NCBI GenBank assembly: GCA_963802945.1
Contig: CAWDKY010000053.1
Span: 1-64,000, forward strand
Direction of reading: 5' to 3'
Length of the DNA stretch: 64,000 nt
DNA from: an uncultured delta proteobacterium
Lineage (GTDB): Bacteria; Desulfobacterota; RBG-13-43-22
In this document: positions 1 through 22,715 of the stretch, one piece after another
Layout of the letters: every line of letters begins with the position of its first letter
Position numbering within the stretch: position 1 is the first letter of the stretch
Translations under genes and position numbers: made by a program
Notes under the pieces: model-generated
What the model was told of the DNA's origin: nothing
What the model saw: only the letters and a program-made list of their open reading frames with translations
The model's database searches: none

Positions 1-1786
1 GGATTCGTCCGAATCCAGGGAAAATTTATTTTTATTTTCCATTTCCTCACGAAGCAGATCACCCAAATTCGAACTGGCTTCTTTGGAACTATTCAGATAT
101 TCCTTGATCAAGGTCTGATCTTCCTCCTTCTTGGCTCGGCGAACGGAAAGCCCGATTCTTCGCTCTTTCTTGGCGACATTGATTACCTTGGCCGTAATGG
201 TATCCCCCGTCTTAAACAGTCCAACAGGAGTTTTAATCTTCTCCTTACTGGCTTCCGAGACATGGACCAGCCCTTCCACGCCTTCCTCAATCTCAACAAA
301 GATCCCGAAATCGGTCACATTGGTGATAACCCCGGTAACGACAGATCCCGTAGGATACCTTTGGGGAATCGCTTCCCAAGGATCAGGTTCCAATTGTTTG
401 ACTCCTAAAGAAAACCGTTCCTGTTCCTTATCGATATGCAGAACTTTGGCCTGAATCTCCTGCCCTTTTTTATACAACTCCGAAGGGTGTCTCACCCGCT
501 TGATCCAGGAAATATCCGAAATGTGAACCAATCCGTCAATGCCTTCGTCAATCCCAATAAAAAGACCGAAATCGGTAATATTTTTTATTTTACCTTCAAT
601 CACGGTTCCTACCGGATATTTTTCGGCAATGACATCCCAAGGGTTGGGTTCGACCTGTTTTATGCCCAAAGAAATCCTTTTTTTATCCGGGTCCACGGAC
701 AGAACTACGGCCTCTACGATTTCTCCCACGGAAACAATCTTGGAGGGATGCTTAACCTTTTGAGTCCAGGACATTTCAGAAACATGGACCAATCCTTCCA
801 CACCATTTTCCAACTCAACAAAGGCCCCATAATCGGTCAAGTTGATGATCTTCCCTTTGACCTTCTGGCCAATCGGATACCTCTCCGTCACCGTAACCCA
901 AGGATCGGAATGGAGTTGCTTTAATCCTAACGAAACCCGATGGCGTTCCCGGTCGAAATTTAAAACCATGACCTGCATTTTATCGCCTATCCTTACAAAG
1001 TTCAGAGGGATGGCTGGCCCGACCCCAACTCATATCGGTGACATGCAAGAGACCATCGATTCCTCCCAGGTCGATAAAGATCCCGTAGTCGGTAATATTT
1101 TTCACTATGCCTTCCAGGATCTGGCCATTTTCGAGGGTATTTAAAATCGTATTTCTTTGTTCTTCTCTTTCTTTCTCCAAAAGAACCCGGCGGGATAGAA
1201 CCACATTATTCCTTTTTTTATTGTATTTGAGTATCTTGAACGGGAAGGTGGCTCCTAATAAATGATCCATATCGCGAATGGGCTGCAGGTCAATCTGGGA
1301 CCCGGGCAGAAAAGCAGGAATACCGATATCAACGGTCAATCCGCCTTTGACTTTTCCGACGATCTTGCCCTCAATCACTCCATCATCACGATAGATTCGG
1401 CTGATTTCATCCCAAACCAAAATCTTGGCGGCCCGTTCTTTGGAAAGCAGGATATCCCCTTCTTCATCATCACGCTTTTCAATCAGGACATCCAGCCAGT
1501 CACCGGCTTGCGCCGTTATTTCTCCGGAAGGGGTTAAAAACTCACTAATGGGAATGCGGCCTTCCGATTTGTAGCCGATATCAATCATGACATGTTCCTT
1601 GTCAATGCCGACAATCCTTCCTTTGACCACTTCCCCTTCCTGAAAAGTTTTTAGGCTTTCCTCATATAATTCTTTAAATTCCTCTTCCCCCGGGTTCCCC
1701 GAGGACCTCTCATTCAAGATCTTCTTTTCTTTGGTCTGGATTTCGTGTTCTGGGTTACCCATTTCCTCTGTGTTTTTTTCCATCAA
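1..1786 (-). CDS. rpsA: 30S ribosomal protein S1; frameshift near 985, 3' end runs off the window
   Basis: ORF 980-1786 has S1 repeats (VMIDIGYKSEGRIP, PAFLPGSQID, ITDYGIFIDLGGIDGLLHVTDMSW). S1 repeats continue in another frame to base 1 (...KERRIGLSVRR...SSNLGDLLREEM). Located downstream of cmk. Confidence 0.93.
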
Positions 1787-1952
1787 CCTTTTATCCCCCT
1801 AAACTTCCTTTTTTCTCCTCAAGAACCGTTGGCCTGCCGCACCTTTTTTCTTCCCGGTCCCTTCCTTCTATTCGGTGGTTATGATAATTGTAATGAGTAT
1901 ATCAAAAATATTCATAAAAATCAAGCTTATTTGAAAATGGCTCTTACCCGCC

Positions 1953-2657: not shown

Positions 2658-2782
2658 GTTTCTTTCGAAAAAAGAGACCGAGGAGATCAAAGGTCCAGGG
2701 TATGAGGAAGCTTTTAGTATGAAGGGCACGGTTTTTGGTTTTTCCTTTAACCTCAAACCGCGAACCTTAGACCTCCAAACAT

Positions 2783-3889
2783 TTAACTCCTTAATTCTTT
2801 TCTTCCGTTATCCAACACCTGTTTCAATACCCTCAAAAAACGCCGGTTTTCTTCAGGAAGCCCGACATTGACTCGAATAAACTCATCCAAACCGTAACTT
2901 TGCATGGAACGAATAATGATTCTTTTTTTCAGCATGGCTTCATAAACCCATTGGGCCTTCAAAGGAATTTTTATCAAAAGAAAATTGGTCTGGGAAGGTA
3001 AATAGGCCAAGCCCATTTGAGTCAACCCCCATTCGATGGTTTTCTTGCCCCTATGGATGAGAGCCATGGTTTTCTCATAAAAAGCCTGATCCTTTAAGGC
3101 ACCCAGCGCTCCGGCCTGGGCCAGGGAGTTCACATTAAAAGGTTGCCGCACCCGATTGATATAATCGGCCAGTTCAGGCCGGGCCAGGCCGTAGCCGATA
3201 CGCAGACCGGCCAAGCCATAGGCTTTGGAAAAAGTTCTGAGTACTAAAAGATTTTTTTCGGAATTGAGGTAATCCAAACCATTGGGGCATTCCAGATCTT
3301 CCACAAAGTCTATATAGGCCTCGTCCAATAGAATCAGAATCCGGTCGGGAATGGAGCTCAAAAACCGCTCCCAGGCTTTCCTTTTTATGATCGTCCCCGT
3401 GGGATTGTTGGGGTTGTTGACAATAATGACCTGGGTTCGGGGACCTATCCGGTCCCGCATGGCTTCCAGATCAAGGGTAAATCGCTTAAGCGGCACCAGG
3501 AGGTTCTTTCCGCCCAACGCCTGAACCGCCTTCTCATAGACCAGGAAAGAAGGTAATGGAGATATGACTTCAAAACCCGGTTTCGAAAAGGTCTTCAAGG
3601 CCAGTTCAATAATCTCATTGGATCCATTCCCCAATATGATTTGTTCCGGCGCAACACTAAGGTATCGGCCAAGAGCTTGTTTTAGATAATAACCGCTTCC
3701 ATCCGGATACCGATGAAGTTGAGACAAGGCTCGTCGAATGGCCTTTAAGGCTTGAGGGGAAGGACCTAATGGGTTCTCGTTGGAAGCCAATTTGATCACT
3801 TCCTGAATTCCATATTCCCGAGTCAATTCTTCAATAGGTTTTCCTGGAGGATAGGGAACTAGCTCAAGGATTGATTTTTTTATTTCCAT
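2783..3889 (-). CDS. hisC: histidinol-phosphate aminotransferase
   Basis: KLASNENPLGPSP, NPNNPTG, DEAY, RTFSKAYGLAGLRIGY. Confidence 0.93.
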   Translation of the reverse strand: MEIKKSILELVPYPPGKPIEELTREYGIQEVIKLASNENPLGPSPQALKAIRRALSQLHRYPDGSGYYLKQALGRYLSVAPEQIILGNGSNEIIELALKTFSKPGFEVISPLPSFLVYEKAVQALGGKNLLVPLKRFTLDLEAMRDRIGPRTQVIIVNNPNNPTGTIIKRKAWERFLSSIPDRILILLDEAYIDFVEDLECPNGLDYLNSEKNLLVLRTFSKAYGLAGLRIGYGLARPELADYINRVRQPFNVNSLAQAGALGALKDQAFYEKTMALIHRGKKTIEWGLTQMGLAYLPSQTNFLLIKIPLKAQWVYEAMLKKRIIIRSMQSYGLDEFIRVNVGLPEENRRFLRVLKQVLDNGRKELRS

Positions 3890-10117: not shown

Positions 10118-10516
10118 ATGAGTAACATTATTAAATGGGTTTTCAATCTATTGGTCGTTTTGGTGATTGTCTTAGGTTCCTTTACCTGGGTCTTTGGTGC
10201 TTCCCAAGAAATACGTCCGCCGTCTCAATTATCAGGCACTATTGTTTCTCCGGTGGAAGAAAGAAAACAGGCCCTTTCTTCCGGGGATAAGATTTTCGTC
10301 GCTTTGGATAAAACCCGTCCGGTTAAAAAAGGGGATACCCTGGAGATTTTTCAACAAGCCTATTTGACGATTGAAGGTAAACTTGCTTTCCCTCTTGTAC
10401 GGTCGGGGCAGGTTATCATCCTGGAAATCATCGATGAACGTTTGTTATTATGTGTCATTGAATCCAGTACAAAAGAAATTGCGGTCGGGGATCGTATCTA
10501 TTTCCCTGAACATTAA
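10118..10516 (+). CDS. exported hypothetical protein, FlgT-C/TsaP-C-like beta-barrel
   Basis: Signal peptide; pattern IFVALDK..VKKGDTLEIF...GQVIILEI...IESSTKEIAVGDRI. Confidence 0.6.
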   Translation: MSNIIKWVFNLLVVLVIVLGSFTWVFGASQEIRPPSQLSGTIVSPVEERKQALSSGDKIFVALDKTRPVKKGDTLEIFQQAYLTIEGKLAFPLVRSGQVIILEIIDERLLLCVIESSTKEIAVGDRIYFPEH

Positions 10517-10539: not shown

Positions 10540-11661
10540 ATGAAAAAAATAATCGTTCTTTCAAGCATACTCGGTTCTTGTTGTTGAATGGGATAATTCA
10601 AACCGGTTATGCCCAAAAAGTTGAAACCCCTTCCCAGCCGACGAATTTCTCCGAGCCTCATAAAAGGATTTATCCAAAATGTGAACCAATCAGTTTCTTT
10701 TTTGGCCGCCGATCTTGGTTTTGATTATCGACAGAGACCGGTGGTCGGGATTCTGGTTTCGAATTTTTACAATCCGGCCGGAGAAGAAATTGAAATAGGC
10801 AATCAAATCGCCTCGGAACTGCGGGCGACCTTAAACAAGGGAACCCAATTTCATGTTTATGGGAAAGAACATCCGGTTAGCCAAAGTTTGAAAGCCAGCT
10901 TAACCACCGATCCAAAATGGAGCGCCTCTTCTCAAAAAACGTTTCAGCAAAACTTATTGAAAAAATTTAAACCATTTCCCGTTGATTTGATTATCACCGG
11001 CCAAGTGAGCCAGGGGCCTGAAAACCGTATAAAAGTGATGGCAAACCTGATCCCTTTTTATAAACCCATAAGTCTGGTGGAGGGCGAGAGCGGAAGAAGC
11101 GATATCCGCACCGAACAATTTCTCAGCCCGGCCCTATCGCTACCAGAGATGGATAAGGCTTTGTCGGTCATTCAAATACCGACCGTAGCCAAAGGACGTT
11201 TGGTCATTGTCTCTTTAATGAAAATGAAGAATGGTCAATATTCCGGGCCTGGGACTTTGTCATCCCAGGACAGGACAACCATGAAAAGCTTTGGGGAATC
11301 CTCGGAAATACCTGTAAAGCGCCTGTCCATAATGGATATCGCCTGTTGTTGGCTGGACGATAAAGAATTATCCGTTGTCAAAGATTGGGAGGATTTCAAG
11401 AAGAAAGAGTATCATGATGTTTTAAGCGGGTTCGGTGCCGACACCATTTGGTTTGATGACATGATTACTGAAGGGCCCCACTCGATTTTCATCAGTCTTG
11501 CCCAAGATCCATCGAAAACCCGATTTAAGACCTTTTCAAAATTCTTTTCCATAAAGGGCGGAACATCCAACTATCTGTTTTTTTCCATCGATTCCGATCT
11601 ACTGGGAGAACTCGAGGTTCGGCATGTCATAGATCCCGAAAACAGATCCTTGCCGTTTTAA
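10540..11661 (+). CDS. exported hypothetical protein, possible FlgO/CsgG-like N-terminal domain; 5' part frameshifted
   Basis: 350-aa ORF 10609-11661. Upstream ATG at 10540 gives a signal-like MKKIIVLSSIL that joins FLLLNGIIQTGYAQ in other frames. Pattern VGILVSNF..IGNQIASELRATL...VDLIITGQV. Confidence 0.55.
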
Positions 11662-11867: not shown

Positions 11868-12527
11868 TCACTTTACCCCTTGGCTCCTTGAACTCCCAAG
11901 ATATTCTTTCAGTTCCGAAAATCCTTGGATGTGAAAATCAGCCAGCAAGGCTGAATTTTTATAAGCCACAAAAATCACACCCGCTCTGCTGGCCGTTTGG
12001 GCATCAACCTCCGAATCTCCAACATACCAACATTGTCTGGGAGTCACTTGAAAATAATTTACTATCTTGAATATCGATTCGGGATCCGGTTTTGGTTGAC
12101 TTACATCCAACGAACTGATCACTAAATCAAAATAAGGTTGCAAGTCAAACGTTTGTAACACCTGTCCGATAGTGGTTGATCGGTTGGTGGAAACTGCTGT
12201 TTTGAACTTTGGCCGGATATAATCTAAGAAGTCGATCAATCCCGGTTCCATATCCATCAATTGGATAAAAGGGGTATAGTCAAGACTCCGGTTATAAGCC
12301 AGGACCGCATCCCGGAGGTGCTGGTCCCTAAACAAATAATTGACCGACTCTCCGGCCGTATGCATATGAACATAATCTAAATCGGTTTCGGCCAAAGGTG
12401 GCTTCCCAAAGTGTGTCAATAAATGATTATAAAAAGATTGGTTGGCCTTTCGGGAGTTAAATAGGACTCCATCGCAATCAAAAATGATTACATCCGGCGG
12501 GCGAACAAAACTCAGGGGCGTGTCCAT
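11868..12527 (-). CDS. HAD-family hydrolase (phosphoglycolate phosphatase-like)
   Basis: IIFDCDGVLFNS motif I, STNR, PKPDPE, YVGDSEVD. Confidence 0.9.
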   Translation of the reverse strand: MDTPLSFVRPPDVIIFDCDGVLFNSRKANQSFYNHLLTHFGKPPLAETDLDYVHMHTAGESVNYLFRDQHLRDAVLAYNRSLDYTPFIQLMDMEPGLIDFLDYIRPKFKTAVSTNRSTTIGQVLQTFDLQPYFDLVISSLDVSQPKPDPESIFKIVNYFQVTPRQCWYVGDSEVDAQTASRAGVIFVAYKNSALLADFHIQGFSELKEYLGSSRSQGVK

Positions 12528-12906
12528 AGAATCGAATTTCCACCTCTGGATTAATGGGGTCATTGCTGATGACCTTAAAGAATCGTTCAAAGTTTCCGTC
12601 CAATTTCTTAGGTATCAGTTGAAGCAATATTTCTCCCTGGCCTCCGGCTGGGATGTACGGGTCAAACCGTACTACTTTGGTGCTTCAATAATACTTAATT
12701 TTGGAGATATGAAGAGGAGATTCTCCCAAATTTTTAACGGCGACACGGTAGGTGACTGGTTCGGGAGAGACCAGGTCGCCGACATTCAACACCGTAGGAC
12801 TCAAGACCATCTTAGGGGCCAACGTTAAGTTCTCCTCGGTCACTAAAGGAAGACTACAGGCCATAAGACTGAAAAACATGATCATGAAAAGTATTCGCTT
12901 AACCAT
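12478..12906 (-). CDS. DUF1573-like lipoprotein with in-frame UGA (candidate selenoprotein)
   Basis: Lipobox LMAC. ...VKNLGESPLHISKIKYY-UGA(12685-12687)-STKVVRFDPYIPAGGQGEILL...KVISNDPINPEVEIRFYG; frame stays open to TGA 12478. Hairpin 12 nt after the UGA. Confidence 0.75.
12655..12672 (-). promoter_or_regulatory. SECIS-like stem-loop
   Basis: mRNA UGA-AGCACCAAAGUA-GUACGG-UUUGAC-CCGUAC: perfect 6-bp stem starting 12 nt after the UGA. Confidence 0.6.
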
Positions 12907-13198: not shown

Positions 13199-15871
13199 CT
13201 ATTTTAAGGCCAGTCTTACCTCGGTTATACCACCGGACATCATTTTGTATTGAAAACCCAATTTTCTGGCCATGTTCAGCATCTTTTCGTTTTCAGTGAG
13301 TACCGAACCATAAATCTCCTCCAGGCCTTTGTCCTGAGCAATGCCTATGATCAGATCAACAAGCTTATAGCCCAGACCTCTCCCCTGGTAATCATCATGC
13401 ACCAGCACGGCGTATTCGCCGCTCCGGAAGTCGGGTTCGATAATCAGTCTCCCGATACCAATGATCCTTCTCCGACTGCCGTCCTTCACTTCAGCTACCA
13501 TGGCCATCTCCCGGTCATAATCGATGTTGCAGAAACGAATGAGCATTTCATGGGAGATATCTCTGACTATGTAAAAGAATCGGGTCCTCAATGTTTCCTG
13601 GGATAAAGTTGACAGCATCTCATGTTCCAACGGTTCGTCCTCCGGTCTAATCGGCCGAAGCGTCACTTCGGTGCCGTCCGACAATTTCCAGAAGGTGATA
13701 TATCTTGTCGGATAGGGTGTAATGACCAGGTGTGGGTATGGAAGAGTATGATCAATCGATTCTTTGTCTATAATGATTCTAGCATCAAGACCATAGGCTT
13801 TCCCATTGGTTATGGCAATCGGGTTTATATCCATTTCGGCAATTTCCGGGAAATCCACAATCAGATTGGAGAAGCTGACCAGCAGCTGTTCCAGCTCTTT
13901 CATGTCGGCAGGCTTTTTCCCTCGATAACCTTGGAGCATCTTATATACTTTGGTCTCCTCCATCAGTCTCCGGGCCAGTATCTGGTTCAGCGGAGGAAGA
14001 CCGATAGAAATATCTTTGAATACTTCGGCACCGATTCCCCCCATTCCAAAAAGGATGATTGACCCAAAATCTTTATCTTTTTTAGCCCCTAAAATAATCT
14101 CATAATCAACATTCTCAATCATCTTCTGGACAGTGACTCCCGCTATTACGGCTTGCGGCATTTTTTCTTTAACCGTTTTCAGCATTTCTGCATATTCCAG
14201 TTTCAGCTCTTCTTCCGACCTGATGCCGATCCTCACCCCACCGACATCGCTTTTATGGGAAATATCCGGGGAGACGATCTTGATAACCACAGGGTATTTT
14301 ATCCTATCGGCTATCGTTATGGCCCCTTCAATACCGTGAACCAAGTAGGCCTCAATAACCGGAAGGCCGTAATTACTTAAAAAGTTTTTCGATTCCTCTT
14401 CGGAAAGAACAGCCCTTTCATCTTTAACAATCCTCTTAATAAGGGCCTTTAAGTGATTTTTCGGAGGGGACTCTGTTAACGGAAGTTCGGATGGCGTTTC
14501 ATAAAGCAGGGCAAGATTTCTGTAATATTTATTCATGTACAAGTAGGTTTTCACCGCATCTTCGGGGGTTTCAAAGACGGGTATTTTGTTGCTCAGCAGG
14601 ATCTCTCTCCCTTGATAAACAGATTCTCCTCCGACTAAGGCAACGATGATCGGTTTCCGGGCCTCCTTGGCCAGTTCCACCACCGAAGCGGCCAAACGAT
14701 CAGGCTGGGAAATGGCTTGTGGGGTATATATAACCAGGACGCCATCCACGTTCGGATCGTTTAAACAGATCTTGATGGCCTTCACATACCGGTCATTGTC
14801 TGCATCTCCCAGCACGTCAATGGGGTTGGCTTTGCTCCAGAACGAAGGCAGGAAGGCATTCAACTCGTTTATACTTTTATCCAACAGTTTGGCCAGTTCC
14901 CCTCCTAATTCCACTAAGGTATCGGTGGCCATCACGCCAAAACCACCGGCATTGGTGACAATGGCCAGCCGGCGATCCTTTGGCAATAAATTCGAGTCGA
15001 GCACCTCGGCTGTATTGAATAAACCGCCGAACTCCGTAACCCTGATGACTCCCGCTCTTTTGAAGGCCGCCTCATACACCTGATCATCACCGGCCATGGC
15101 ACCGGTGTGAGAGAGTGTGGCCTTGGCACTCTCCATAAATCTGCCCGGCTTTACTATGAATATGGGTTTGTTCCGGGCAAACCCTCTGGCGGCACTCATA
15201 AATTTTTTAGCATGTCCGACCCCTTCCATGTAAAGCATAATACTCCGCGTATGCGAATCATTGCCAAGAAAATCTATCATATCGCCAAAATCGATATCAA
15301 TCATGGATCCCAGGGAGGCAAACATGCTGAAACCGACATGAGCGTTAATCGCCCAATCGAGTATGGAACTGCCTAACGCCCCGCTTTGGGAAATGAAAGC
15401 AATGTTGCCGGGGACCGGATCGACTTTTAAAAAAGAGGTGTTTAAACCGATATGGGGTCGGATCACACCGACACAGTTCGGCCCAATGATTCTCAGACCG
15501 TATTTTTTTCTGATTTCGCTGATCTCTTCCTCCAGTTTTTTCCCTTCCTCGCCGATCTCTTTAAATCCGGCTGAAATGATGGTAATCCCGTCAACCCCTG
15601 CCCTTCCGCAATCTTCAACAATGGCGGCTACGGTTTTGGCCGGTATGGCAATCACGGCCAGGTCAACGTGTTCCGGTATGCCGGTAACATTCGGGTAACA
15701 CTTAAGATCCAAGATGCTTTTTTGGTTCGGATTTACCGGGAATATTTTCCTCTTCCCTGGGGAAAGAATATTTTCCAGAATGGCCCTTCCGACAGCGCCT
15801 GCTTTATCACTGGCCCCGATAAGGGCAATCGTCTTGGGATCAAACATAGCCTTGATGCTACTCATGGTCAA
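13199..15871 (-). CDS. acyl-CoA synthetase (NDP-forming)-like/GNAT fusion, protein lysine acetyltransferase Pat type
   Basis: CoA-binding domain (IALIGAS, IIGPNCVG, ISQSGALG, SHTGAMAG), ATP-grasp (HKSDVGGV, EMDINP), C-terminal GNAT (RPIRPED, CNIDYDREMA, YQGRGLG). Confidence 0.93.
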   Translation of the reverse strand: MTMSSIKAMFDPKTIALIGASDKAGAVGRAILENILSPGKRKIFPVNPNQKSILDLKCYPNVTGIPEHVDLAVIAIPAKTVAAIVEDCGRAGVDGITIISAGFKEIGEEGKKLEEEISEIRKKYGLRIIGPNCVGVIRPHIGLNTSFLKVDPVPGNIAFISQSGALGSSILDWAINAHVGFSMFASLGSMIDIDFGDMIDFLGNDSHTRSIMLYMEGVGHAKKFMSAARGFARNKPIFIVKPGRFMESAKATLSHTGAMAGDDQVYEAAFKRAGVIRVTEFGGLFNTAEVLDSNLLPKDRRLAIVTNAGGFGVMATDTLVELGGELAKLLDKSINELNAFLPSFWSKANPIDVLGDADNDRYVKAIKICLNDPNVDGVLVIYTPQAISQPDRLAASVVELAKEARKPIIVALVGGESVYQGREILLSNKIPVFETPEDAVKTYLYMNKYYRNLALLYETPSELPLTESPPKNHLKALIKRIVKDERAVLSEEESKNFLSNYGLPVIEAYLVHGIEGAITIADRIKYPVVIKIVSPDISHKSDVGGVRIGIRSEEELKLEYAEMLKTVKEKMPQAVIAGVTVQKMIENVDYEIILGAKKDKDFGSIILFGMGGIGAEVFKDISIGLPPLNQILARRLMEETKVYKMLQGYRGKKPADMKELEQLLVSFSNLIVDFPEIAEMDINPIAITNGKAYGLDARIIIDKESIDHTLPYPHLVITPYPTRYITFWKLSDGTEVTLRPIRPEDEPLEHEMLSTLSQETLRTRFFYIVRDISHEMLIRFCNIDYDREMAMVAEVKDGSRRRIIGIGRLIIEPDFRSGEYAVLVHDDYQGRGLGYKLVDLIIGIAQDKGLEEIYGSVLTENEKMLNMARKLGFQYKMMSGGITEVRLALK

Positions 15872-16899: not shown

Positions 16900-18144
16900 T
16901 CAATTAAGTTCTTTTTCCTGTGGAAAGACCGGCAGGTAGCGATAGGATAAGGAGATAATCAAGGCCCCATAGGCCAGAACGGCTATAACCGGCGCCCATT
17001 CCTGCCAACTCGGCCAGTAGGTTACCAGGCGGTCAAAAGGCATGACCGGCAAAGCCAGAGAAACCACTGTAAAGACGAACCGGTTAAAAATAACCCCCAG
17101 GCAGGTCAAAAGGCAGGCCAAGACCAACCATTCGGGACTCATCCTCATTTTATTGCTCAGCAGCATAAAGGCCGGAAGAATTCCAAAAATGCCCAGTTCA
17201 GCCACCACCAACCAGAAACCATAGGGACTTGGATATTGATCCATCAAATGCAATCCTTGAGCCGGCAAGTTGACTATTGCCCAATAAATTGTATCGGCAA
17301 ACTTTAAAATGAGATAAGCGATCAACAGACCCCCGGAAATCTTACCCAACAAGGCCAGCACTTCTTGTTTAACCAATTTTCGTCCGGTCACCTTCTGTAC
17401 CAGGGAGGTAATCAAAATCGTAAAGGCCGGTCCGGAGGCAATGGCCGAGGCAATGAAAAGGAAGAAGGTCCAGGGCCAGATAAAAAATCCTCCCCTAAAG
17501 GCAAAAGGCCGGGCGAACATAACGCCGAACATACCGCCCAGAGAACCTTGATGGAAAAAAGACAGAAAGGTCCCTGTCCCGGCGAAGATGAACATCAGTT
17601 GATGCAGATTCTGGCCAAAATAATGGGCAAAGGGTTTGGAATCAATTTTTTTGTTTTCCAGGACCAGAGGGACATATTCGATCATCAATACCCCAAAATA
17701 AAGGGTGATACAAAAGATCACTTCGGTCATCACGGAATGCACATTGGGATGCCAGAAACCGTACCAGGCCCGCAATGGTTGCCCCACATCCAGCGTGAGA
17801 ATCAAAATCGCCCCGCTGTAACAAATAAACCCAATGATGACCGCAAAATTAATGATGGCCTTCAATTCTTTTTTGCCCAAGAGATAAGTCAAAAAGCCGG
17901 TAAAAAAAGCCCCGGCCCCCAGGGCAATGACCGACAGGTCAAAGGTGATCCACAAGGCGAACCCGAAATAATCGTTCATATTGGTCTGGTTCAATCCCTT
18001 CCAGAAGATCAGAAAAGCCGCCAACAATCCCCACCCTATAAATAAACATAAGATAATAATCCATTGGAAAAATTTGCGGCCGGAACACCGAACAACTCCT
18101 TCCGGAATAAAGGCCTCATCTTTAACCATCATGTTATCATTCAT
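16900..18144 (-). CDS. qrcD: quinone reductase complex membrane subunit QrcD (NrfD/PsrC family)
   Basis: Multi-TM, WITFDLSVIALGAGAFFTG, DVGQPLRAWYGFWHPNVHS, SFFHQGSLGG; last gene of the ABCD cluster. Start moved to 18144. Confidence 0.9.
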   Translation of the reverse strand: MNDNMMVKDEAFIPEGVVRCSGRKFFQWIIILCLFIGWGLLAAFLIFWKGLNQTNMNDYFGFALWITFDLSVIALGAGAFFTGFLTYLLGKKELKAIINFAVIIGFICYSGAILILTLDVGQPLRAWYGFWHPNVHSVMTEVIFCITLYFGVLMIEYVPLVLENKKIDSKPFAHYFGQNLHQLMFIFAGTGTFLSFFHQGSLGGMFGVMFARPFAFRGGFFIWPWTFFLFIASAIASGPAFTILITSLVQKVTGRKLVKQEVLALLGKISGGLLIAYLILKFADTIYWAIVNLPAQGLHLMDQYPSPYGFWLVVAELGIFGILPAFMLLSNKMRMSPEWLVLACLLTCLGVIFNRFVFTVVSLALPVMPFDRLVTYWPSWQEWAPVIAVLAYGALIISLSYRYLPVFPQEKELN

Positions 18145-18202
18145 TTTCTGCCTCTTTAGTTCAAAAATAACCACACCTAAGTTTTGTGGTGGTCTATTCT
18201 CC

Positions 18203-18457
18203 GTCATGCCGGACTTGATCCGGCATCCAGGGCATTTGATAATTTAATTTACCTGGATTCCGGCTTTCGAGACTGTGTCGTAATAGCGGACAGCGCCATC
18301 AAAGCCGTCATCCAGACGTCGTCCCGGCGAAAGCCGGGAACCAGACCCATATCCCCTGGATTCCCCCGGATCGAGTCCGGGGCAGGCTCCTCGTCGCGCT
18401 TCGCTTGCACGGAATGACAAAAATATAATTGCGCCACAGTCTCTTCGCCGGAATGAC
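18203..18457. repeat. nested palindromic repeat: REP-like hairpins with a TIR-MITE (18269-18443) inserted
   Basis: GTCATGCCGGACTTGATCCGGCATCCAG ... CTGGATTCCGGCTTTC[GAGACTGTGTCG...GCCACAGTCTC]TTCGCCGGAATGAC. Near-identical to 34827-35090. Confidence 0.85.
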
Positions 18458-18600
18458 TTTTTCTTATATGGTAAAGCAATATTTTCATGATTTCTGGTGC
18501 ATTGCAAAGCGCATAAAGGTTTTATTCGACGAACACCCCTGCCTCTCGCAGGCACTCAACGCCGAACGCTTTTTGTGCCCTAGACCCCTTGAATCCTTTA

Positions 18601-19365
18601 TTATGAAACCTTCCTGATCGCTTCTTTTTTCAAATCATTGTCCCCCTGCCGGCGAATCCAATCCTGCCTGGTCAGGTAATAGACCTTGGGCCGGCTCCCT
18701 AATTTCTCAAGGAGTCGAAAGGCCCTGGGACTTTTACTGAGTTGAAAGACCTGACTTTGGGGGTCCTTCAAATTGCCAAAGGTAATGGCCCTGGTCGGAC
18801 AGGCCTCAGCGCAGGCCGTGATGTATTCTCCATCCTTGAGGTCGCGCCGCTCTTCCATAAAGGCCTTATCCTTAGCCCGCTGATAGCGATGATGGCAAAA
18901 GGTGCATTTATTGACCACCCCGCGCATGGCCAAGGAAACATCCGGGTTCAAATAATTCTCCATACCTTTGGGATAAACCGGGTCCCACCAATAAAAATAC
19001 CGGGCATGATAGGGGCAGGCGGCCACACAGTACCGACAGCCTATGCATCGGGAATAAATCTGACTGACGATCCCCTTCTCATCCATCTGAGTGGCATTGA
19101 CCGGGCAGACCGAGACGCAAGGGGTGTGCTGGCAGTGCATACAGGGCCGTGGTAAAAAGGCCACCCGGGTCTTGGGAAAAGGTTGACCATTGTTGAGCCG
19201 ATAGAGCCGCATCCAGGTGGTGGTCCTGAGTTTGTCGGTCTCGTCTTCCCGGAAAGAAAGGTTGTTTTCAGCCATACAGGCCACAGCACAAGACCCGCAT
19301 CCGGTACACTTATCCAGGTCAATGACCATACCATATAATTCTTTTCCGACCGATACCTCTTTCAT
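18601..19365 (-). CDS. qrcC: QrcC, 4Fe-4S ferredoxin subunit (NrfC/DmsB family)
   Basis: CTGCGSCAVAC, CMHC..TPCVSVCP, CIGCRYCVAACPY, KCTFC..ACAEACP. Confidence 0.9.
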   Translation of the reverse strand: MKEVSVGKELYGMVIDLDKCTGCGSCAVACMAENNLSFREDETDKLRTTTWMRLYRLNNGQPFPKTRVAFLPRPCMHCQHTPCVSVCPVNATQMDEKGIVSQIYSRCIGCRYCVAACPYHARYFYWWDPVYPKGMENYLNPDVSLAMRGVVNKCTFCHHRYQRAKDKAFMEERRDLKDGEYITACAEACPTRAITFGNLKDPQSQVFQLSKSPRAFRLLEKLGSRPKVYYLTRQDWIRRQGDNDLKKEAIRKVS

Positions 19366-19374
19366 GAACAACCT

Positions 19375-21667
19375 CTACACTTTCTTAATTTTTACCCGCG
19401 TGACCCAGGTCAGTTCTAAGCCGGTCAAGGGGTCCTCCGGGCCATCCAACATGGGATAAGGATTTGCACCTCTGTTTTTTAAAGTGGGACCATAGGCCTT
19501 ATGTCCCATTCCTAAGGGAACAAAGACACAATCGGGCCTGGCCCCTTCAAATAAATGGATCCGGGCCTTGATCTTTCCTTTGACGGATTGAATCTCGACC
19601 CGATCCCCTTCCCATAAAGATAAGGATCTGGCCGTATCGGGATGAATCTGAACGACTAGGGCATTTTTTATCAAAGTTTCTCTCCCCAGGGTTTTGGTCA
19701 GAAAGGGGGGATTGGCCAAGTAGCCGGATTGAAGCAACAGCAATGACTGTGGCACCATCCAATAGGGATATTCTTTCTGGGTCTGGGTTATCCCCTGCTC
19801 TCCGGCTTTAAAGGTAGAAGAAGAAAAATCCCATCGGCCTTTTCCTTCTGCGCCTTTATTCTCCAAATGATACCAGGTTCCTTGGGCCACCAGTTGTTCC
19901 CAGAACTTATCAAAGGATTCAAAGGAGGCCGGGCTGAATGTCCCCTCTTCCGGTATTGGTTCATTGGTCAGCCGACCTTTTCGGGAATCAAATAAGGATT
20001 TAGCCGACTGTTTGATCACTGCTTCCATATTTTCAAAAGGAAGGGCCTCCTGAACCGTTCCGCCAAAATTCTTTGCAATTTGTAGAATAGCCTCGCCCAT
20101 AGATCGGGTATCATGCATAGGAGGCAGTATCGGTTTGGTCAGACCATAAACCGGGAACGGCACGCCAAGGCTGCCATACTGGTCATCCCAGCGCTCCAGG
20201 AATAGTGGGAGATGGAAGAATCAGGTCGGCCAGAGCAGTGGTTTCGTCCATAAAAGGGGAAAAACTGACAACATAAGGGATCTGGTCGATAGCCTGAAGA
20301 ATATTTTTTTCACCAAAGGAAAAAACAGGATTGGCCTCGTTGATCAATAGGACATTGATGGGGTAAGGATTCTTTTGAGCGACATTTGCAAAAAAGCGGC
20401 CGGCCATTTGCCCGGTCTTGGAATACTTGGCGGAAAAAGCCCCATCCAGTCTGGGCTGAGAAAGACCCTTTTGGGCCGATTCATCCAAAGGCATCTTAGA
20501 CCAGGAAGCATAGGAGAACCCGGGTTGGATATAAACACCGCCCGGTCGATTGATGCGGCCCACCAATAGATTCAGGAGGTGAATAGCCTGGGCCTCAAAA
20601 AGACTGATTGGCAATTCTCCTTTGCCTTTGCCCCAAAGGGCGATCGGTTGTTTGGCAGAGGAAAAATCTTTAGCGAGTTGAAGAATCGTTTCCGGGCTGA
20701 CGGTTGTTTCCTTAGCCACCTGATCCGGCGTATAGTTTTTATTCAATAATCCTCTTAATTCATCCAGACCGGAAGTTTTAGCACCAACGAATTCTTTATC
20801 ATACCAGCCCTTCTCAATCATCACTTGAGCCAGACCTAAAGCCAGAATCCCTTCAGTTCCCGGTTTGATGCTTATCCACTCATCGGCCAAAGAGGCCGTG
20901 GTTGTGGCCATAACATCGATCTGGATAATTTTGGCCCTATCCTTTTGAGAATCCAAGCGCCATTCCTGAAAGGATTGAGCCACCCAACAGGGATTTCCCC
21001 AGCCGTCCAACAAAGCGCTTCCAAAGCTTAAAATATATTGAGACCTGGGAAGATCATAGGCCATGCTGGTTCGGACTCCGTGAATAGTTTGAGTCAATAT
21101 CTCTTCCAGATCGTTCAATTGAAAGGGTCGAATATAATTTGGAGAACCATAGGCCTTTAAGAACCTGGCCGCCAATTGGGCTTGACTCCCCTCCCCTTCT
21201 CCATCCAAGAAGGCCACGGTATGCGACAGATTATTTTGTCTTAATTCTTTCAATTTGGAACTGACTTCCGATAAGGCCTCTTCCCAGGTAATAGGCTTCC
21301 ATGCCCCCCCACCGCGAGCCCCGGTCCTTTTTAAAGGGGATTTAAGGCGAATATCTTCCTGGTAAAGGTATTGAAGACCGGCCAAACCTAAAGGGCACAT
21401 CCCGCCCCGGTTGACCGGATGGTTGGGATTGCCGTCGATCTTGACGGCCCTTTTTTCTTCGATCAGCCTGACCCGTATTCCGCATCCACCAGGGCAAAGC
21501 TTGCAGGTCGATGGGATATAGGTAATCCCACCTTTTCCAGGAATTGGGGCCCAGCGTTGGGTCCATCTGGCCACCTCGTCCATAGACAGCCAGGGTAACG
21601 GAGTAAATACTGTCCCCACGGCCCCGCCAATCACCAACTTCAAAAAATCTCTCCGGTCAAATCCCAT
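19375..21667 (-). CDS. qrcB: QrcB, molybdopterin-oxidoreductase-family periplasmic subunit; frameshift near 20200
   Basis: Tat motif DRRDFLK, CKLCPGGCG..GNPNHPVNRGGMC, DETTALADLILP; C-terminal domain IHPDTA..GARPD in 19375-20163. Confidence 0.88.
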
Positions 21668-21746
21668 CTTTATTTCCTCAACAAAACTTTTTGTTACAAA
21701 AAATGAAAAATAATATTTGATGAGCCTCTTGAAAGAGTCTTTTATT

Positions 21747-21984
21747 GTCATTCCGGCGGAGAGACTGTGTCGTAATAGCGGACAGCGCTATCAAAGCCGT
21801 CATGCCGGCGAAAGCCGGGATCCAGAACTTAATGAAAATACTGGATTCCGTGTCGCGCTTCGCTTGCACGGAATGACAAAAATATAATTGCGACACAGTC
21901 TCGAAAGCCGGAATCCAGGAAGATGTAACTGGTTCCCGGCTCTCGCCGGGGCGACGCCTGGACCCCAGCTATCGCCGGGGTGAC
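21747..21984. repeat. nested palindromic repeat with TIR-MITE (21761-21902) between qrcA and qrcB
   Basis: GTCATTCCGGCGGA[GAGACTGTGTCGTAAT...ATTGCGACACAGTCTC]GAAAGCCGGAATCCAG plus further CCCGGC/GCCGGG hairpins. Confidence 0.85.
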
Positions 21985-22019
21985 TGCGCTTCTTATCTTT
22001 TGCGATTCTAAAAAATTTA

Positions 22020-22144
22020 CTGATTGATCAAAAAGGTTCAGATGCAAGGCGCCCGACATCCCGAGGAATGAGGCGTCCATATAAGTACGCCGGAATAACG
22101 AGGGATGAGGGCAACACCGCAGATGAACTTTTTTCATCAACCAG
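22020..22144. mobile_element. MITE family 2, copy 1
   Basis: Imperfect TIRs CTGATTGATCAAAAAGGTTCA / TGAACTTTTTTCATCAACCAG; core CAAGGCGCCCGA..TCCCGAGGAATGAG..GTAC..GAGGGAT shared with 42286-42462. Confidence 0.75.
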
Positions 22145-22148
22145 CTAA

Positions 22149-22715
22149 CTATTTATGGCAGACAAAACAATCATTACTAGCCCCCTTCTTCTCATGGCAG
22201 GCCTCACAGGTTTTCATGCTCATCACCTCCGGCGCATAACCGGAAATCCACTTATACCGATAAGTGGGGTTTTTATCGGTTCGACCGCCGACCGATTTAT
22301 GACAGGTCGTACACTCCAATTTGGCCATCTTGATATGGGCGGCGTGAGAAAAAAATACATTATCCGGCTGTTTGGAATAAATGAGCCAGGGGATGTTCTT
22401 TTTTTCTTTTTTCAGCTTCTCAGACAGTTTGATAAAATCAGCTTCTTCTTTGGAACTGCCTTGGGCTGACTCATGACATTCCAGGCACTTGGCCAAAGTT
22501 GGGATACCGGCGAAACTCCCATCGGTCCTGAAAGTATGACAGTCTTCACACTTTAATGAAGCAGCTTCCCCATGCTTCAGATGACTGAAACGAACCGGCT
22601 GTTCTTTTCTGGAATGGATAAGGGCCGGAAAAACAATCCAGCCGATAACTAATGCGGCAATCAGACCAATCCCAAAAAATAACCATTTACCCTTGCCTTT
22701 TCCTTCTTTTTCCAT
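22149..22715 (-). CDS. qrcA: QrcA, membrane-anchored pentaheme cytochrome c
   Basis: N-terminal TM; five CxxCH (CEDCH, CLECH, CTTCH, CEACH, CFVCH); QPDNVFFSHAAH. Confidence 0.92.
   Translation of the reverse strand: MEKEGKGKGKWLFFGIGLIAALVIGWIVFPALIHSRKEQPVRFSHLKHGEAASLKCEDCHTFRTDGSFAGIPTLAKCLECHESAQGSSKEEADFIKLSEKLKKEKKNIPWLIYSKQPDNVFFSHAAHIKMAKLECTTCHKSVGGRTDKNPTYRYKWISGYAPEVMSMKTCEACHEKKGASNDCFVCHK

Follow-up and report, generated by a model that had tools for sequence, protein, structure and literature searches.

When a TGA triplet lies halfway along a reading frame for a DUF1573 domain, does it end the gene or does it encode selenocysteine (Sec)? This question is raised by a locus in the first 64,000 nucleotides of contig CAWDKY010000053.1 (assembly GCA_963802945.1), from an uncultured delta proteobacterium; this whole stretch of 64,000 nucleotides is hereafter called the window. 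On its minus strand, a single frame of 142 amino acids extends from an ATG at 12906 to a stop TGA at 12480-12478, with one in-frame TGA at 12687-12685. In our assessment, the gene 12906-12481 very probably encodes a selenoprotein of 142 residues in which UGA codon 74 specifies Sec, this reading including an exported product, a DUF1573 fold and a genomic context linked to Qrc, whose subunits are those of a menaquinone reductase in NCBIfam naming. The actual insertion of Sec, export, lipidation and all biochemical function are what we infer from sequence.

The frame consists of 73 sense codons, the TGA and 68 further sense codons, which begin STKVVRFDPYIPAGGQGEILLQ. Translated with U at the TGA, the coding sequence (12481-12906, minus strand, the stop TGA at 12480-12478 lying outside this range) gives a protein with a hydrophobic N-terminus ending in L-M-A-C, then ...ISKIKYY-U-STKVVRFDPYIPAGGQGEI...SNDP... 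An earlier note, made from the letters of this DNA alone, had described the open reading frame (ORF) of 73 codons ending at TGA 12685-12687 and the 68 sense codons past it, and had proposed a hidden selenoprotein; all its statements of sequence were borne out, on the minus strand. Read support for the TGA, which the same note had named as a check, is weak at most: among the contigs of four DNA runs, none of which spans the whole stretch, a contig of 232 nt from run X1 covers 12602-12833 with two differences, neither of them at the TGA, and this contig possibly derives from the window's own source sample.

Orthologs were taken from one uncultured Desulfobacterota (Thermodesulfobacteriota) family, the window's order being represented in our sample by 21 genomes of this single family. 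The set comprised 19 full-length orthologs and paralogs from four genera, 41-91 % identical to the window protein, and one fragment (L049). All 19 align with one another from end to end, and a TGA occupies the identical alignment column (12685-12687 in the window) in every one of them and in the fragment; a Cys form was found in none of these 20 sequences. In a six-frame search of 41 related genomes, matches were obtained in 25, with an in-frame TGA at 42 of the 49 matched places, and in the order-wide search (21 genomes) none of the 21 places matched at E <= 1e-15 lacked the TGA. When a Cys homolog of 216 amino acids was compared by BLASTP, U74-S-T aligned to C-G-C, and among 38 distant homologs retrieved from genomes the aligned codon was Cys in 31 and TGA in 7, all seven TGA forms being U-G-C. 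The proposal that the UGA falls at the first Cys of the C-G-C motif of DUF1573 was thus upheld.

Conservation does not fade past the UGA, another point on which the earlier note had turned: mean pairwise identity is 0.678 past the TGA versus 0.556 ahead of it (171 pairs), and the downstream ratio of nonsynonymous to synonymous substitution rates (dN/dS) lies between 0.13 and 0.33 in seven of ten pairs, dS being saturated and not computable in the other three. Judged from these values, purifying selection is stronger on the part past the TGA than on the part ahead of it. Because conservation is higher downstream and dN/dS is low, the part past the TGA must be translated in that very frame.

Public databases hold this protein in two pieces, as had been foreseen for automatic gene calling. 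In a HMMER search of 1.84 billion representatives, the close relatives were only N-terminal halves of 73-74 amino acids and C-terminal halves of 64-75 amino acids, either without a name or called 'hypothetical protein'; all copies found are split, and the full-length matches are all remote (at most 38 % identity). Remote Cys homologs were recovered by HMMER as well, and a search by word index, with the read-through protein as query, yielded nothing at E <= 0.001. Among 401 sampled genomes of the phylum, matches of at least 43 % identity were confined to this family, and in a pattern scan of species-representative genomes close relatives were found only in metagenome-assembled genomes labelled Thermodesulfobacteriota or 'delta proteobacterium'. 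The split databases are what one would expect if the TGA were a true stop, leaving a 73-residue exported peptide followed by a decaying remnant or by a separate, internally started small gene: gene callers predict exactly this, with N-halves of 73 and C-halves of about 64 amino acids, and selB is frameshifted in this assembly (see below). We nevertheless regard a true stop as extremely improbable. It would cut a single immunoglobulin (Ig)-like domain midway, the downstream half is the better conserved one with the dN/dS values given above, and the starts predicted for the C-half vary from species to species. Moreover, four genera retain the TGA and its frame at 41-60 % identity, and a nonsense remnant would not keep the exact stop together with an intact flanking frame.

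As for the fragment itself (L049, G009:C5), it is an extra copy broken by a TAA shortly past the Sec codon, with a further piece carrying a TAG, and is probably a decaying paralog.

Around the Sec codon, the ortholog alignment shows an invariant K-I-K ahead of Sec and R-x-D past it. The residue at position +2 from Sec is T, S, V or M, U-S-M being confined to the clade B orthologs and T, S or V occurring in the other clade. The earlier note had deduced that the protein has no adjacent resolving Cys; this stands, Cys being at +2 in none of the 19 orthologs, and the mature protein has no conserved Cys anywhere among them. A Cys located 3-4 residues before the end in 8 of 19 orthologs was considered as a resolving partner and not adopted: the predicted local distance difference test (pLDDT) is below 50 in the tail that holds it (residues 138-142), and in this gene its bases are shared with the N-terminal codons of the downstream HAD gene.

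The second line of evidence is a hairpin resembling a selenocysteine insertion sequence (SECIS), GUACGG-UUUGAC-CCGUAC, at 12655-12672 on the minus strand (5' arm GTACGG at 12672-12667, loop TTTGAC at 12666-12661 and 3' arm CCGTAC at 12660-12655). It starts 12 nt past the TGA with a perfect stem of 6 bp, exactly as had been described from the sequence, and folds alone at -8.5 kcal/mol. The bSECIS model (PMC13188914, legend of Fig. 2) sets an upper stem of 4-16 bp, an apical loop of 3-9 nt, 16-37 nt from UGA to loop and a minimum free energy (MFE) of at most -7.5 kcal/mol; the hairpin lies inside these ranges as that legend gives them, with 6 bp, 6 nt, 18 nt and -8.5 kcal/mol, respectively. The legend also wants a G within the first two loop positions, a rule to which we return below.

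Conservation of the hairpin was analysed in 20 sequences (15 distinct). Its stem pairs in 96.7 % of cells, as against 4-53 % in controls with the partner arm displaced by 1-3 columns. One pair is compensatory (A-U to G-C): where Tyr (UAC) becomes His or Gln (CAC or CAG) between clades, the synonymous third base of a Val codon switches from A to G, so that the covariation sought for this hairpin is present. Of the four-fold degenerate codons, 15 encode the same residue in every ortholog; the third base differs among orthologs in 13 of them and is fixed in all 19 orthologs only in Arg CGG and Pro CCG; since these two form the top of the stem, their fixed third bases point to selection on the RNA and not on the protein. 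Departures are few: the terminal stem pair is lost in two orthologs, and in one (L024) two stem pairs are broken and the stem is regained in a shifted register. Beyond the family, the mean MFE over positions +7 to +45 is -12.5 kcal/mol in the 7 distant Sec forms versus -5.4 kcal/mol in the 31 Cys forms, a comparison between sequences that also differ in G+C content. No Rfam family matched at E <= 1 between 11500 and 13500, which places the hairpin outside every curated RNA family.

A second, small hairpin adjoins the first at 12653-12634 (12634-12653, minus strand), over the codons of I-P-A-G-G-Q-G. The orthologs keep it, and at one of its pairs the clades differ by a C-G/G-C swap. As independent SECIS evidence it was rejected and it is given little weight, because the CCN and GGN codons of the family-wide P-x-G-G motif fold alike in the Cys form L038.

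Components for Sec synthesis and decoding were searched in the same genome, the earlier note having made its proposal depend on them. A tRNA-Sec with anticodon TCA (74.3 bits), selA (627 bits) and selD (392 bits) were all above their cut-offs, and the N-terminal part of selB was recovered at 266 bits; this part of the proposal stood for the first three genes and only in part for selB, which is present but lies in three reading frames in the assembly. Since the selD gene (L018, G000:C17:413977-417888) has a single in-frame TGA of its own, selenophosphate synthetase is probably another selenoprotein of this organism.

With regard to the product, the read-through protein has a match to Pfam DUF1573 (PF07610) at residues 38-127, spanning the TGA, with 34.2 bits against a gathering threshold of 26.1, and PF22544 matches with 29.2 bits; the domain, a DUF1573/ASH (PapD-like) Ig-type beta-sandwich, is encoded at 12526-12795 (minus strand). 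An AlphaFold2 model was built from the 19-sequence alignment with Cys substituted for Sec. Its mean pLDDT is 86.4, with block means of at least 93 over residues 31-130, and it has eight strands; according to DSSP, residue 74 is in a non-strand stretch between strands 65-72 and 76-81. The best solved matches in Foldseek were 2qsv, an uncharacterised protein of Porphyromonas gingivalis, and the PapD-like/ASH domains of HYDIN and CEP192. A search of PDB sequences with the ortholog profile gave no meaningful match (best E 0.86).

The N-terminus is encoded at 12856-12906 (minus strand) and reads as a signal peptide, modelled as a helix at residues 2-16. Residues 14-17 of the window protein are L-M-A-C (codons 12867-12856), which we take to match the lipobox pattern. 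A hydrophobic, signal-peptide-like N-terminus is found in all orthologs, whereas a lipobox Cys is limited to two of the 19, i.e. the window species and L023, the rest having a signal peptide without Cys. The earlier description of a membrane-anchored lipoprotein is therefore retained as probable for the window species and its nearest relative and rejected as a trait of the family. We propose from these N-termini that export is a family trait, lipid anchoring being presumably particular to these two species.

The genomic neighbourhood adds a link that was absent from the earlier note and was found in this analysis. Upstream of the selenoprotein gene and on the same strand lies a qrcABCD operon (16900-22715), identified with NCBIfam equivalogs: qrcA at 22715-22149 (QrcA, 221.6 bits, cut-off 180), qrcB at 21751-19375, qrcC at 19371-18601 (QrcC, 410.7 bits, cut-off 400) and qrcD at 18207-16900 (QrcD, 646.4 bits, cut-off 570). 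In the assembly qrcB consists of two ORFs in different frames (522 and 262 amino acids), which score 344.7 and 88.6 bits, each under the cut-off of 440. In a relative of the same genus, qrcA, qrcB, qrcC and qrcD are all over their equivalog cut-offs, and a four-gene qrc layout was recognised by ORF size in six extended loci from five relatives, with Pfam support in three. Among the 21 loci examined, qrcD ends 51-693 nt ahead of the Sec gene or its remnant, on the same strand, in 13; it is farther upstream in three more, i.e. at 1.6 kb and about 8.8 kb in two near relatives and at 4 kb in the window. There, an ADP-forming acyl-CoA synthetase/GNAT fusion gene of 890 amino acids (13199-15871, minus strand) and a short plus-strand ORF stand between qrcD and the selenoprotein gene; the fusion gene, mentioned here only as context, also occurs in the nearest relative (G005) and in none of the other 20 loci (about 3.4 kb each).

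On the other side, a HAD-IA hydrolase gene (11868-12527, minus strand; Pfam HAD_2, 103.7 bits) follows, and a HAD homolog is directly downstream of the Sec gene in 15 of 21 loci. With its likely ATG at 12527, it overlaps the selenoprotein gene by 50 nt (12478-12527), i.e. the last 16 or so codons, in agreement with the earlier note. The stop TGA of the selenoprotein gene is built from bases inside the F-D-C-D-G codons of HAD; since this stop and the near-terminal Cys codon share bases with the codons of the HAD N-terminus and DxD motif, the two reading frames constrain each other. The 50-nt overlap is kept within the genus. In one ortholog (L026, G003:C35) the protein stops at a TAA eight codons before the ends of the others, so the C-terminal tail is dispensable.

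Several observations weigh against the reading of this gene as a Qrc-linked selenoprotein gene, and they are gathered here. The hairpin alone is weak evidence and no more than chance: a perfect 6-bp hairpin occurs at a comparable position past 69 of the 2344 TGA trinucleotides in the window (2.9 %). Its loop, UUUGAC, starts with U,U, and a G comes to stand within the first two loop positions, as the bSECIS model wants it, only when the G-C pair that closes the loop is counted as open (G-UUUGAC-C, with a 5-bp stem and an 8-nt loop); six g1 sequences with the loop UGGGAU or UGGGAC (L025-L029, L049) have such a G as folded. Covariation amounts to one event per helix among related sequences, and for this reason it supports the Sec reading without proving it. 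On NF041425, the NCBIfam model of the OS_HP2 family (seleno)protein, whose cut-off is 100 bits, the protein reaches only 43.8 bits, and scanning the genome gave 37.5 bits. Not all genomes of the genus have the gene: in G012, qrcD is followed by HAD after about 350 nt, with no trace of a selenoprotein gene between them (L079, G012:C133, locus 2718-3066). As it was lost or never inserted there, it must be dispensable. Outside the family, no DUF1573-like frame was found within 1.5 kb in any of 26 qrcD loci. Lastly, selB is spread over three reading frames (L010, G000:C30:178705-182334, selB at about 178945-180834, minus strand), and this is the main caveat for this organism, in which Sec decoding would fail if the frameshifts were real.

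What decides, in the case of the hairpin, is the comparative evidence: the TGA column conserved in 19 of 19 orthologs and at 21 of 21 order-wide matched places lifts the locus far above chance. As for selB, comparison with the intact gene of the nearest relative (93 % identical DNA) revealed three single-base coding insertions, which sum to +3 and after which the frame is regained within about 540 nt. A net single-base insertion relative to the nearest relative is also seen in qrcB, and this likeness suggests systematic indel errors in the assembly. Probably, then, the selB frameshifts are assembly errors rather than signs of a broken gene. In four of the five relatives searched selB is intact, the fifth genome being 85 % complete.

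These frameshifts also bear on whether the UGA might be read through by other means, i.e. near-cognate suppression or a reassigned code giving Trp, Cys or Gly. Nothing specific favours this; what can be said for it is that Sec insertion is itself deduced and that selB appears broken in the assembly. The UGA stands at a Cys column, a conserved hairpin follows at the distance of bacterial SECIS elements, and tRNA-Sec, selA and selD are present. Furthermore, the code is not reassigned, because TGA also terminates the selenoprotein gene itself and many other genes of the window. We therefore hold read-through with another amino acid to be most unlikely.

Read as a selenoprotein, the window protein belongs to a family that is already known, since DUF1573/OS_HP2 with U-G-C has been in print since 2007. 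OS_HP2 was first listed for the symbionts of Olavius algarvensis (PMC1976440, Table 2), an entry for the GOS data reads 'OS_HP2, pfam07610, UxC' (PMC2398784), and the motif is given as 'UGC' in passages of two reviews (PMC9312934, PMC13188914). The window protein shares with OS_HP2 the DUF1573 Pfam domain, Sec at the first Cys column of C-G-C, a hairpin at the homologous place over the x-R/H-F-D-x codons, and presumed export. It differs in its motif, which is U-S-T in the window and U-[S/G]-[T/S/V/M] in the subfamily versus U-G-C in all seven distant Sec forms examined; in its size, as a short single-domain protein of about 142 amino acids versus distant relatives in open frames of about 230-490 amino acids; and in its subfamily traits, i.e. 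no Cys-form ortholog seen and linkage to qrcABCD and HAD. Both the NF041425 cut-off and the U-x-C motif exclude it, which is why we set it apart as a subfamily.

Compared with the Cys-type DUF1573 proteins (PF07610; nearest solved fold 2qsv), the Ig-like PapD/ASH beta-sandwich and the motifs N-x-G, R-F-D, P-G-G-x-G-x-I and S-N-D-P are common to both, whereas the Cys-type proteins read s-C-G-C-t, have neither UGA nor hairpin, and are mostly multi-domain or repeat proteins. A parallel is offered by the single-Sec motifs tabulated as OsmC-like UxxT, DsbA-like UxxV and AhpC/TSA-like UxxS (tables of PMC2398784 and PMC9312934). There too Sec is kept and T, S or V takes the place of the second Cys, which would imply an external partner for the selenol. 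Those variants have a thioredoxin or OsmC fold with U-x-x-T/S/V, in contrast to the Ig-like fold with U-x-T of the window protein, so that the likeness is one of logic and not of homology.

Two features appear new, namely a Sec-only subfamily, U-[S/G]-[T/S/V/M], single-domain and without a resolving Cys, in one uncultured lineage, and its conserved place just past qrcABCD with a gene overlapping that of a HAD hydrolase. In text searches of the literature, a Sec-only DUF1573 subfamily was nowhere mentioned, nor was a Sec protein encoded within a qrc operon, the latter negative covering titles and opening lines of abstracts among the matches listed, although supplementary family tables may list the subfamily; 'DUF1573' is absent from the main texts of BSepDB (PMC13326102) and deep-Sep (PMC12013277), whose supplementary family tables could include it.

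Another DUF1573 selenoprotein gene is located elsewhere in the same genome (L042, G000:C16:230553-233837, gene at about 1393-2085 of the locus, Sec codon at 1615). Its product is of the U-G-C type, with about 230 amino acids and two domains, and scores 96.5 bits on NF041425; a 7-bp hairpin lies at an equal distance past the UGA, and the gene adjoins a GT4 glycosyltransferase gene.

How might such a protein be made and work? SelB and Sec-tRNA(Sec) would recode UGA codon 74 to Sec, SelB being positioned by the short hairpin located 12 nt downstream, within the coding sequence. The N-terminal signal peptide would direct export through the Sec pathway to the periplasmic side, where in this species the lipobox would probably have the protein lipid-anchored. 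The product is predicted to fold as a single DUF1573/ASH Ig-like beta-sandwich, with Sec in a tight turn that joins two strands; Cys-type relatives have C-G-C at this site and catalogued Sec relatives U-G-C. With the second Cys replaced by T, S, V or M, the selenol would have no partner in the motif and would have to act on something else, for which the thiol of a partner, a sulfur or selenium species, or a soft metal are candidates.

As a role we put forward, tentatively and as a possibility somewhat short of an even chance, a periplasmic accessory for redox or sulfur/selenium transfer (chalcogen handling) tied to Qrc. The invariant K-I-K and R-x-D around Sec would suit an anion or partner site, an argument weakened by the fact that R-F-D is common to Cys-type DUF1573 proteins too.

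As the main rival to this role, the protein could instead be a periplasmic binder of soft metals or metalloids such as Cu(I), Hg(II) or Cd, which it would buffer. The Sec call would then be right, the exposed selenolate possibly having as its partner the selenolate of a second subunit or, in one clade, the Met at +2, and the position beside qrc would be mere synteny. CxC is a common metal-thiolate motif, and U-S-M in clade B puts Met at the place of the second Cys. We find this rather doubtful, as the Met is restricted to one clade, T, S or V being found in the other, no metal-handling gene adjoins the selenoprotein gene in any annotated locus, and the conserved neighbours are qrcABCD and the HAD hydrolase. 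Once the Qrc-linked role and metal binding have been considered, the weight that remains would go to functions without a name.

Returning to the Qrc-linked accessory, a bolder version of it can be formulated by analogy, and we rate it as decidedly unlikely: a mono-selenol Ig-domain carrier might be, in this family, a dedicated fifth, periplasmic component of Qrc, which would pick up sulfane sulfur or selenium or relay reducing equivalents at the periplasmic face of QrcABC, with the invariant Lys-x-Lys and Arg-x-Asp as anion site. The analogue is Sud, the donor of polysulfide sulfur to a polysulfide reductase that shares the molybdopterin/iron-sulfur/NrfD build.

Linkage to qrc as a general trait of DUF1573 was considered and rejected, as QrcD was found within 1.5 kb in none of the 8 distant DUF1573 loci examined and none of the 26 outside qrcD loci has a DUF1573 gene.

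These results have a practical and a biological side. Annotation is to be corrected, since all copies found stand in databases as two halves, without a name or labelled 'hypothetical', and NF041425 would miss the protein (43.8 versus 100). The DUF1573 selenoprotein family is seen to have a branch that keeps Sec and drops the partner Cys; as no Cys-form ortholog was seen, this argues that selection holds the selenol itself and not a Sec-Cys pair, and the branch constrains ideas on the role of the uncharacterised C-G-C site of DUF1573. The fixed place past qrcABCD offers a concrete starting point for testing what DUF1573 does, within the electron and sulfur chemistry of the periplasm in bacteria resembling sulfate reducers. 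The import is limited in that no new kind of system is described and that the subfamily belongs to a single uncultured lineage, some members of which do without the gene.

Minor observations concern the surroundings of these genes. Promoter-like sites numbered 3, close to the shuffled mean of 3.3, and the promoter/terminator scan was not used. For two plus-strand ORFs just past the HAD gene (10609-11661, 350 amino acids, and 10118-10516, 132 amino acids), NCBIfam gave nothing at E <= 1e-8. Three genomes have additional copies of the selenoprotein gene outside the qrc locus, among them L046 and L048 (G013) and L045 (G009). Transposase genes stand beside two of these, of the ISL3-type DDE kind in L046 and IS200-like in L048, and mobile elements may thus have duplicated the gene recently; in L045 and L048, a FabH-like gene lies upstream on the same strand. 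Finally, in a different family of the phylum (L039, G024:C154), a long DUF1573 selenoprotein gene of the U-G-C type (about 858-1946, minus strand) is directly followed by a homolog of this HAD hydrolase with 41.5 % identity (265-864, minus strand), and the pairing of DUF1573 with HAD may thus be older than the linkage to qrc.

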